Source of the DNA: Escherichia coli
Lineage (GTDB): Bacteria > Pseudomonadota > Gammaproteobacteria > Enterobacterales > Enterobacteriaceae
NCBI RefSeq assembly: GCF_003334255.1
Contig: NZ_QOWU01000103.1
Direction: 5' to 3' (one strand)
DNA length: 5,793 nt
The notes beneath the pieces were generated by a model that had not been told where the DNA came from, made no database searches, and saw only the letters and a list, made by a program, of their open reading frames with translations. This document shows positions 3,157-4,686 of this stretch, in pieces (within the stretch, counting starts at the first letter, position 1; each line of letters starts with the position of its first letter). The position numbers and the translations under genes were made by a program.

Positions 3157-3729
3157 TCACGTAAAAATAAAATAAATACCTGTACCTAATATAAAAATGG
3201 AACTACATATGCTTATGTATCTTGAGAATGATGGCGTCAATTTATCCCTTATCGTTAAGCTAATAGCTATGTAAATAAGATCTGTTAGGAATGATATAAA
3301 TATAAATAAAACACCCAATATAAAAAAGTTTAATGTGATATTTGTATTATTATCTATAAAGGTTGGTATTAACGCAGCAAAGAAAAGATACGCCTTGGGG
3401 TTTAATAATGGTATCAAAAAAGGTTTTTGCTCTTTTCTTTGTTTGTTTTTTTTATTAATTAAACCCATTAATCCTATGTATATTAAATAGCCTCCACCGA
3501 ATATTTTTATAATGTGAAAATGTTGTTCTGTGCTGGATGTTGAGGATAACGCGAAAAGAGATATTGCCATGACGATAGTCTCGCCAATTCTTATGTATAT
3601 ACTTGTTTTTATTGATGACTTTAATCCATGTAAAAAGGCATTGTTTATAACCAATGCAACGCCAGGCCCTATTGATATAGTTTGCGATAAGGTTACGATA
3701 GCAAATGATAATAATGTTGAATATTCCAT
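3157..3729 (-). CDS. LysE/RhtB-family (LysE translocator superfamily) small-molecule exporter, 190 aa
   Basis: Multi-pass hydrophobic protein. The N-terminal segment LSFAIVTLSQTISIGPGVALVINNAFLHG resembles the RhtB/LysE N-terminal signature (LSPGSGAINT...), and LNPKAYLFFAALIPTFI resembles the conserved NLTNPKSIVFLAALFPQF region. Length is typical of the family. Start codon lies 6 nt after the upstream gene's stop. Confidence 0.7.
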   Translation of the reverse strand: MEYSTLLSFAIVTLSQTISIGPGVALVINNAFLHGLKSSIKTSIYIRIGETIVMAISLFALSSTSSTEQHFHIIKIFGGGYLIYIGLMGLINKKNKQRKEQKPFLIPLLNPKAYLFFAALIPTFIDNNTNITLNFFILGVLFIFISFLTDLIYIAISLTIRDKLTPSFSRYISICSSIFILGTGIYFIFT

Positions 3730-3735
3730 GTTTAC

Positions 3736-4686
3736 TTACCATGATATATTTCGTGGGAGCTTTTCATATACATATTCCATAGGAATTGCAGCTTTCGGTA
3801 ATAAATTTATAAATGTTGATATGTGTTTTAGTGAATTGCTGGCGGCGATTGAGTAAAAATTTCCGCTATTCCAATATATTGATGCGTATTTAAAATGTTG
3901 TTTAATTGCGGAAAGCATATCGTCAACACTAACTTCATTCAAATTCATTGTGTTTAGTACGATTTCCTTTTTGGTGTTAATCTCATCTTTCGAGAAATAC
4001 CTTTGTTTGAATGAATAATCTTTTTGGATTTCTCTTTTTTGATATTCATCATGTTCTGAACTATGTTTTTCTGTAAATATGAAAATACCATCATTATTTA
4101 ATAGCCTTTTTACGTGGTTTATTTGCCCAGATCTGTTAGGTGGGTACATTTGAAATGTGGTGTCTTCTATTATAATATCGAATCCTTGATTAAATTGTTT
4201 AAGATTTGAATTTTTTAGTCTTTCCTCTAACAGGAAAAATGGAGTGCAAATAAAATAAGCGTTTTCACTTGAGCCATACTTAAAAAATGCATGTTCATTT
4301 TCTTTTGTTGGACTGGTTGTTAATGTTTGTATGTTTCCTTTTGATAATTCTGAAATGGTTCTTGCCATTGCGCCCTCAGCCATACCAAGACACCATGTGT
4401 TTAATTTTTTGTTTAGCGTGATTGCGTATTTTATTACTGTTGTTCCTAATCTGCACTCTTCTTCCTTGCTGTATGGTATACTGCAAAAATAATGATTAAC
4501 GAAAGGGCCGCTGTTTTTTGTGAGGTGTTTGGCAAACTTAATGTAATCATAAGAATGAAAAAGCCGATCATCTATTTCTACTAGTCTAAAAGGTTTGTGT
4601 TTTTCCCCTGATGCAGTTGATGAGAAAAATTCTGCCATGCCGTTTATTCTCGGAGCGGAAATACATTCATTTATAAAATTATTCAT
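3736..4686 (-). CDS. Hypothetical enzyme, 316 aa, with a divergent class I SAM-dependent methyltransferase-like motif pattern; substrate unknown
   Basis: Long minus-strand ORF with a GAGGA Shine-Dalgarno about 8 nt upstream of the ATG. Motif-like strings in the expected order and spacing: WCLGMAEGAMA (motif I-like, glycine-rich), FDIIIEDTTF (motif II-like), VKRLLNNDGIFIF (motif III-like). First gene of an operon with the LysE exporter. The CDS call is firmer than the functional call. Confidence 0.6.
   Translation of the reverse strand: MNNFINECISAPRINGMAEFFSSTASGEKHKPFRLVEIDDRLFHSYDYIKFAKHLTKNSGPFVNHYFCSIPYSKEEECRLGTTVIKYAITLNKKLNTWCLGMAEGAMARTISELSKGNIQTLTTSPTKENEHAFFKYGSSENAYFICTPFFLLEERLKNSNLKQFNQGFDIIIEDTTFQMYPPNRSGQINHVKRLLNNDGIFIFTEKHSSEHDEYQKREIQKDYSFKQRYFSKDEINTKKEIVLNTMNLNEVSVDDMLSAIKQHFKYASIYWNSGNFYSIAASNSLKHISTFINLLPKAAIPMEYVYEKLPRNISW

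Follow-up and report, generated by a model that had tools for sequence, protein, structure and literature searches.

The enzyme–exporter pair and its plasmid

The DNA window analysed in this report (the whole stretch of 5793 bases from Escherichia coli) comprises a complete circular plasmid of 5716 bp, which was read with an overlap of 77 nt. The plasmid is 100% identical to the E. coli plasmid JE86-ST05_p5 (NZ_AP022820.1, 5716 bp). This record is typed as mobilizable (MOBQ), in agreement with the plasmid context given in the initial annotation. The backbone encodes Rep, a TraD-like protein and a MobA/MobL relaxase and has a GC content of 45–60%. The region of ~2400–4800, on the other hand, is AT-rich, as had been noticed before, with a GC content of 28–33%, and contains three open reading frames (ORFs) of 238, 190 and 316 residues. 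Two of these are the subject of this report: an enzyme-like protein of 316 residues, here named ENZ (3736..4686, minus strand), and an exporter of the LysE/RhtB family with 190 residues (3157..3729, minus strand). Positions and sizes of both are exactly those originally proposed.

The stop codon of ENZ and the start codon of the exporter gene are separated by 6 nt (TAA gtaaac ATG; spacer at 3730..3735, minus strand). A Shine-Dalgarno-like GAGGA is located 7 nt upstream of the ENZ start codon (4694..4698, minus strand). The sequence around the start codon of the exporter gene contains no Shine-Dalgarno motif of its own; this feature and the short spacer had been described correctly. Translation of the exporter is probably coupled to that of ENZ.

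The 190-residue protein matches the NCBIfam models TIGR00949 (E-value 9.4e-17, residues 21–185), LeuE (2e-13) and RhtB (9e-11). The models for RhtC, EamB and LysE are matched as well, and the scores for LeuE and RhtB are better than that for LysE. RefSeq names the protein 'LysE family translocator', and its initial assignment to the LysE/RhtB type is therefore retained. Five hydrophobic segments were found by the Kyte-Doolittle method, which is crude; five to six helices in ~190–210 residues are expected for the family. The score is below the cut-off of every curated equivalog model and thus a substrate cannot be assigned to the exporter. Exporters of the LysE/RhtB/LeuE type usually expel amino acids or analogues that would otherwise be toxic. 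The matched models include those of RhtB, which exports homoserine and homoserine lactone, and of LeuE, which exports leucine and its analogues. In contrast to the characterised LysE/RhtB/LeuE paralogues of E. coli, the exporter described here has a partner enzyme of its own, with which it is probably co-translated.

DNA of this two-gene module is present in 35 of 72,556 PLSDB plasmids (from E. coli and Salmonella, with one distant match in Klebsiella) and the reading frames of ENZ and the exporter are intact in 25 PLSDB records. It is carried by 24 of 5426 complete E. coli genomes and is plasmid-borne every time. Identical proteins are on record for Shigella sonnei. A nearly identical plasmid was found in human, sheep and freshwater isolates, and also in Salmonella and Shigella. 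The plasmid occurs in two alleles with ~99.9% and 93% identity to the window. Between the 93%-identical alleles, dN/dS is 0.09 for ENZ and 0.18 for the exporter. Thus, both genes are under purifying selection. PADLOC gave no match to a defence system.

Fold of ENZ and comparison with CmoA

A model of ENZ was built with AlphaFold (AF2) on an alignment of 42 homologues, with a predicted local distance difference test (pLDDT) of 94.5 and a predicted template modelling score (pTM) of 0.93. It consists of a helical cap (residues 1–94), a seven-stranded Rossmann-like core, a helical lid (residues 212–262) and a tail of 30 residues. Structure prediction and fold search agree on a class I methyltransferase fold of the CmoA-like type, as the initial annotation had suggested from motif-like strings. 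The N-terminal cap, estimated there at ~95 residues, is present as ~94 helical residues in front of β1. A C-terminal extension of ~100 residues, on the other hand, did not hold up. Most of this part is the lid, which is inserted between β5 and β6 as in CmoA, and the core strands β6 and β7, which reach residue 283; the true tail has only ~30 residues.

The sequence is as unfamiliar as it had first appeared. Searches against Pfam gave marginal matches only (Spermine_synth, 1.4e-3; Methyltransf_31, 0.01) and no significant one, and RefSeq labels ENZ as hypothetical. There is no sign of relatedness to TehB or TPMT, which had been judged non-homologous by eye. The resemblance of the pair to TehA/TehB and TPMT-type systems is limited to the concept of combining a methyltransferase fold with membrane export or tolerance. 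The ENZ family has four invariant motifs, SIPY (residues 69–72), LGxAEGxxAR (100–109), EDTTFQM (174–180) and WNSGNF (272–277). Invariant single residues include His65, Tyr72, Arg109, Glu174, Asp175, Lys222 and Lys239. The second motif contains the glycine-rich loop of motif I (L100-G101-x-A-E-G105, a GxxxG pattern like GCSLG in CmoA). Homologues of the Phyllobacterium branch have the canonical GxGxG loop (GAGAG or GTGTG).

CmoA is a carboxy-S-adenosylmethionine (carboxy-SAM) synthase and does not transfer methyl groups. It is the only significant match of ENZ at the sequence level in the PDB. The designation of ENZ as a methyltransferase is therefore kept for the fold and not for the reaction. 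The comparison included the CmoA models TIGR00740 and NF011995 and the PDB entries 4GEK, 4IWN and 1IM8. The NCBIfam match to CmoA has an E-value of 2e-6, covers the C-terminal half only and is far below the cut-offs (27.5 bits versus 193.3 and 18.6 bits versus 285). Published ligand contacts of CmoA (PMC3663124) were used to map corresponding residues. Both proteins have the GxxxG loop and the helical lid between β5 and β6. Furthermore, Tyr39, Gln136 and Lys198 of CmoA align with Tyr72, Gln179 and Lys239 of ENZ, the FNF motif corresponds to GNF, and Gly64 has a counterpart too.

The differences are considerable. Sequence identity is 16%. Asp62, Asp89 and Asp117 of CmoA, of which the latter two contact the ribose and the adenine of SAM, are replaced by Cys/Thr, Thr/Cys and Pro in ENZ. 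An acidic residue at the end of β2, the ribose-binding position, is absent; Asp89 aligns with Thr123/Thr124 (T/S/C/N across the subfamily), and sister subfamilies have Asp or Glu at this position. The invariant pair Glu174-Asp175 of the EDTTFQM signature takes the place of Asn132. Arg199 of CmoA forms a salt bridge to the carboxyl group of the carboxymethyl moiety of carboxy-SAM (PMC3663124). The aligned position 240 of ENZ is variable (K/R/E/Q/S), whereas the adjacent Lys239 is invariant. ENZ additionally has ~55 extra N-terminal residues and the 30-residue tail. Finally, ENZ is linked to exporters and ligases and not to cmoB or tRNA genes. Across 97 homologous loci the recurrent neighbours are exporters, ligases and regulators, and a cmoB-like gene is absent from the plasmid and from all homologous loci with annotated neighbours. 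Orthology to CmoA was rejected because of the score relative to the cut-off, the variable Arg199 position and the gene context.

As the counterparts of Asp89 and Asp117 are replaced, it is the fold and the glycine-rich loop only that make binding of SAM by ENZ plausible. BelI and CysG, which are SAM- and metal-dependent carboxyl O-methyltransferases (PMC11408123), are 10–13% identical to ENZ, give no sequence-profile match, lack the cap domain and are located in a multi-gene β-lactone pathway.

Gene context of the ENZ family

A word-indexed search retrieved 62 relatives of ENZ. An exhaustive search with a hidden Markov model (HMM) gave 613 clusters (50% identity), and 324 of these were below 1e-30. 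Scanning one genome per species, relatives were found in 148 species. Most of these belong to the Rhizobiales; the remainder includes Pectobacterium, Burkholderia, Chlorobium and Streptococcus. The ENZ homologue has a LysE-family gene as its direct downstream neighbour in Citrobacter werkmanii, Pectobacterium, Niallia, Blautia and Streptococcus equinus, as well as in Phyllobacterium myrsinacearum, Ciceribacter and one Rhizobium metagenome-assembled genome (MAG). The partner genes in homologous loci bear PF01810. The two genes either overlap (by 4 nt in Citrobacter locus L002, 8945 versus 8948, and by 11 nt in Blautia locus L011) or are 10–25 nt apart. In C. werkmanii, the pair is part of an integrase/MobA/TraD island and has a GNAT gene upstream. 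In Pectobacterium, it forms a two-gene island flanked by unrelated housekeeping operons, an ABC transporter operon and gcvP. No further genes belong to this island and thus the substrate must be a common metabolite.

MFS exporters replace LysE in most Rhizobiales. The majority of the Rhizobium and Mesorhizobium loci have a divergent operon of AraC, MFS and a 466-residue partner termed U466. Other arrangements are ENZ-MFS-U466 and LuxR-ENZ-U466. Neighbours within 3.5 kb of ENZ were counted in 80 species-level loci. A LysE or MFS exporter is present in 60 of these, U466 in 48 and either of them in 74. In a neighbour-joining tree of the enzyme, LysE-linked members are found in at least four separate clades and are interleaved with MFS-linked members. 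Accordingly, the exporter family has been exchanged and the need for an exporter has persisted. In one representative protein, a two-repeat EamA transporter is even fused to an ENZ-type enzyme. Functional coupling of ENZ and the exporter is well supported. This agrees with the shared function proposed in the initial annotation, and the pair is linked in distant genomes and conserved across phyla. No publication on the enzyme–exporter module or the ENZ family was found in the literature, and the initial annotation had not recognised the pairing as a described system either.

The ENZ family is associated with amino-acid-activating enzymes. In two MAGs, one from Chlorobium and one alphaproteobacterial, there is an overlap between the ENZ gene and the end of a cyanophycin-synthetase-like ATP-grasp gene, and ENZ faces the gene of a Ddl-like ligase. 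The S. equinus pair is adjoined by genes of a DltA-like adenylation enzyme, a RimL-like GNAT, a 2-hydroxyacid dehydrogenase and an MFS pump. ENZ-type enzymes are also found fused to a full class II lysyl-tRNA synthetase (LysRS)-like protein, an AMP-forming adenylation domain, a nicotianamine-synthase-like domain and two unidentified domains. U466 has a class I LysRS-like fold, but BshC is the better fold match. The LysRS-like fusion, the fold of U466 and the name LysE had suggested a lysine analogue as the product. This idea is weakened by the exporter being nearer to LeuE/RhtB and U466 being nearer to BshC.

Regulators of the small-molecule type adjoin ENZ in Rhizobiales; of the 80 species-level loci, 55 have an AraC-type and 9 a LuxR-type regulator. 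The LuxR-type neighbours, which are upstream of ENZ in one branch, reach 57 bits with the TraR model (cut-off 250 bits) and are not orthologues of TraR. They retain all six residues that bind N-acyl-homoserine lactones (AHLs), namely Trp57, Tyr61, Asp70, Pro71, Trp85 and Gly113. This counters an interpretation as 'solos' that do not respond to AHLs; judging from these residues, the regulators probably bind ordinary AHLs. The simplest reading may be that the ENZ cluster of this branch is under ordinary quorum-sensing control. A different arrangement was observed in two Rhizobiales isolates (AFS036838 and AFS084704; loci L025 and L027, ~4541–7866). Here, ENZ is located between a LysR regulator gene and a bona fide traR (406 bits, cut-off 250), and an amino-acid ABC transporter is encoded next to them. 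The arrangement is similar to that of traR operons under opine control on Ti plasmids.

Genes for DNA transfer are frequent in the surroundings of ENZ. Relaxase and TraD genes adjoin the homologues of E. coli and of Citrobacter. Nearby genes are TraA and an rctB-like gene in Rhizobium, traAFBH in Phyllobacterium and the end of a trb operon in Mesorhizobium. Agrobacterium has transfer genes beside the homologue as well. In one Rhizobium locus (L013, 7055–7402) and 11 others, the gene of an SMa0974 (rctB-like) regulator of conjugal transfer directly follows the 3' end of ENZ, in front of traA. The rhizobial conjugation regulators RcgA and RcgR were considered, as ENZ homologues are positioned between tra and trb. 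They are described as an alpha/beta-hydrolase-like protein and a protein with six transmembrane segments and a helix-turn-helix domain (PMC9601222, PMC13055273) and are unrelated to ENZ. The Citrobacter island with the order GNAT-ENZ-LysE (L002, 14320–15000, and L003) also contains a TraD/MobA unit, a protein with a Shufflon_N domain, a TPMT/TehB-like methyltransferase and a ThsB-TIR gene. Its appearance is that of a mobilizable element that has integrated and carries defence genes as cargo. In Blautia from mouse gut (L011, 831–4808), the ENZ-LysE pair directly follows an agr-like quorum-sensing locus that encodes a LytTR response regulator, an HATPase_c_5 kinase and AgrB. This may reflect coincidence or co-regulation.

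Many of the HMM matches belong to a sister subfamily that forms a domain inside giant proteins of 1800–5600 residues (P0235, P0246, P0255 and P0259). The homology extends over the full length of ENZ including the N-terminal cap (E-values of ~1e-40 to 1e-48), and the corresponding motifs are SIPxF, HE[SA]MVFQF and W[NSD]SGNF. In contrast to ENZ, this subfamily retains the acidic SAM-binding residues (D-x-G-x-S-E-G and L-D/E-P-N) and has no exporter partner. One annotated example is the 1829-residue protein PANI_CDS0069 of Maribacter phage Panino (L098, 10987–16476), which bears the name 'tRNA methyltransferase' and is encoded at the end of the virion structural block. Phages and conjugative elements are known to inject 'polyvalent proteins' (PMC5512222), and the position of PANI_CDS0069 fits such a protein. 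The giant proteins match no NCBIfam family and no synthase model of NCBIfam or Pfam. A polyketide synthase or non-ribosomal peptide synthetase identity was dismissed for this reason and because the annotated example resides in a phage virion block.

Possible roles of the pair and the remainder of the AT-rich block

The pair is a conserved, mobile and self-contained enzyme–exporter cassette that is built on a CmoA-like fold. The most likely interpretation, held at about even confidence, is that it makes and secretes an amino-acid-like metabolite. ENZ would depend on SAM and would need only one step to convert a universal primary metabolite, namely SAM, a common amino or organic acid, or both. 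The product would be a non-proteinogenic, amino-acid-like small molecule. The co-translated LysE protein would pump it out, so that it is released into the environment and the producer is protected. Outside the cell, the product could act as an antimetabolite or a signal and thereby provide a selectable trait to a small mobilizable plasmid. By analogy, the cassette would be the small-molecule counterpart of a colicin plasmid.

A comparable logic is found in azetidine-2-carboxylate synthases. AzeJ and VioH are enzymes with a methyltransferase fold that convert SAM to azetidine-2-carboxylate, a toxic proline analogue (Klaubert et al. 2025, PMC11794875). Around their genes, N-acetyltransferases, drug/metabolite exporters, aminoacyl-tRNA synthetase (aaRS)-like enzymes, stand-alone adenylation domains, ATP-grasp ligases and mobile elements are found (PMC11794875). 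The neighbourhood of the ENZ family comprises almost the same list. Fold, exporter and GNAT first suggested that ENZ itself is such a synthase. However, AzeJ and VioH are absent from the structural and profile matches of ENZ, with no specific similarity beyond the generic fold, and this identity was abandoned in favour of a functional analogy. The analogy suggests that in both cases one enzyme turns a universal precursor into an unusual amino acid, which is then exported, acetylated or ligated.

Several observations weigh against a secreted product. The acidic residues that contact ribose and adenine of SAM in CmoA (Asp89 and Asp117) are replaced by Thr/Cys and Pro throughout the ENZ family. 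In 20 of the 80 loci, no exporter is found within 3.5 kb. Promoter-like sites in a consensus scan were no more frequent than expected by chance, and none upstream of ENZ was clear. Most of ENZ has been lost from about seven natural variants of the plasmid (4.96–5.3 kb; for example CP057837.1, CP055729.1, NZ_CP053241.1 and NZ_CP148345.1). Only the last ~50 codons of the gene are left, whereas LysE and the 238-residue ORF are retained. Since such variants exist, the exporter may be useful alone or the enzyme may be costly. Furthermore, gene context alone cannot separate synthesis from detoxification. The analysis shows the fold, the relationship to CmoA, purifying selection on both genes, the conserved linkage of enzyme and exporter and the association with amino-acid-activating enzymes, whereas use of SAM, synthesis as the direction of the process, the chemical class of the product and its ecological role are inferred.

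The initial annotation had considered both production with export and detoxification. In the latter case, ENZ would methylate or otherwise modify an incoming toxic amino acid or analogue, LysE would expel the modified or unmodified compound and the plasmid would confer resistance to an antimetabolite. LysE/RhtB exporters are well known to confer resistance to toxic amino acids and their analogues. The plasmid variants with LysE alone would be explained readily, AraC-type sensors adjoin many homologues, and the neighbouring GNATs could be detoxifiers acting in parallel. On the other hand, the class I aaRS-like ligase, ATP-grasp, adenylation-domain and LysRS-like partners are typical of biosynthesis. 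The two-gene island is also maintained in gut, plant and soil hosts, which argues against a single niche-specific toxin. Detoxification is therefore regarded as rather unlikely, and production is favoured by the neighbourhood, which comprises amino-acid ligases, GNATs, an adenylation domain and a LysRS-like fusion.

A role in conflicts of mobile elements is less probable still. ENZ would cleave or divert SAM (for example to methylthioadenosine and homoserine lactone, or to a modified SAM) and thereby blunt SAM-dependent host defences or tune conjugation, and the RhtB-like LysE protein would remove a toxic amino acid formed as a by-product. This is in line with the sister subfamily in giant phage proteins at a position typical of polyvalent proteins (PMC5512222), the relaxase, TraD, Trb and TraR genes beside ENZ homologues and the match of the exporter to RhtB, an exporter of homoserine and homoserine lactone. 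However, constitutive depletion of SAM from a multicopy plasmid is expected to be costly, and the chromosomal islands of Pectobacterium and Niallia are not next to transfer genes. The chemistry of the phage subfamily may differ from that of ENZ, which has lost the acidic SAM-binding residues kept in the phage proteins. The ligase and adenylation partners would remain unexplained.

A bolder variant of the secreted metabolite has a similarly small chance of being correct. ENZ might represent a new class of synthases that cleave or derivatise SAM and form a diffusible amino acid of the homoserine-lactone, azetidine or aminocarboxypropyl type in one step. In Rhizobiales, the BshC/aaRS-like ligase would convert it to an amide signal that is read by the adjacent LuxR or AraC regulator and controls conjugative elements, a form of quorum sensing or communication between plasmids independent of LuxI. 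The E. coli plasmid, with a reduced version of the system, would secrete only the head-group through its RhtB-like pump into the gut.

An additional tRNA-modification enzyme of the CmoA type (a carboxy-SAM synthase or an RNA methyltransferase) with LysE as a chance neighbour is very unlikely. CmoA is the best structural and sequence match, and some database entries and PHROG 4752 label relatives as 'tRNA methyltransferase'; the CmoA score of 27.5 bits (cut-off 193), the variable Arg199 position, the absence of a cmoB partner and the exporter linkage across phyla, including the transporter fusion, speak against it. Cargo that hitch-hikes neutrally and is currently without function in E. coli might be expected from AT-rich foreign DNA with this low prevalence (24 of 5426 complete genomes) and ENZ-deleted variants, but is equally improbable given the purifying selection on both genes, the nearly identical plasmid in human, sheep and freshwater isolates, Salmonella and Shigella, and the 25 PLSDB records with intact frames.

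Should ENZ form a metabolite that is secreted, an overlooked antimetabolite or signal would be encoded by small 'cryptic' Col-like plasmids in E. coli, Shigella and Salmonella. The CmoA branch of SAM enzymes, so far mainly known for making carboxy-SAM, would gain a new reaction or use. The family is sizeable, with 613 clusters and at least 148 bacterial species, and has neither a Pfam family nor a studied member. It consistently occurs together with exporters and amino-acid ligases and in transfer regions of rhizobial plasmids and integrative and conjugative elements. The module is limited to two genes, and the ENZ-deleted plasmids provide natural controls, so that it can be tested directly.

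The third ORF of the AT-rich block (2383..3099, plus strand) directly follows mobA and is convergent with the exporter gene. The gap of 57 nt between the two (3100–3156) contains imperfect inverted repeats, ACTCATGC...GCATGAGT and GCCGT...ACGGC. A canonical intrinsic terminator was not found by the scan of this gap, and the scan for promoters and terminators gave nothing above chance. The N-terminal half of the 238-residue protein is coiled-coil-like and is followed by one transmembrane segment (residues 153–171) and a short C-terminal part. Searches of NCBIfam, PADLOC and PHROG gave nothing above noise for this protein. The ORF is present in 33 PLSDB records, and 29 of the 30 listed are also among the 35 records with ENZ/LysE DNA. 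Probably, it is the third member of the AT-rich cargo.

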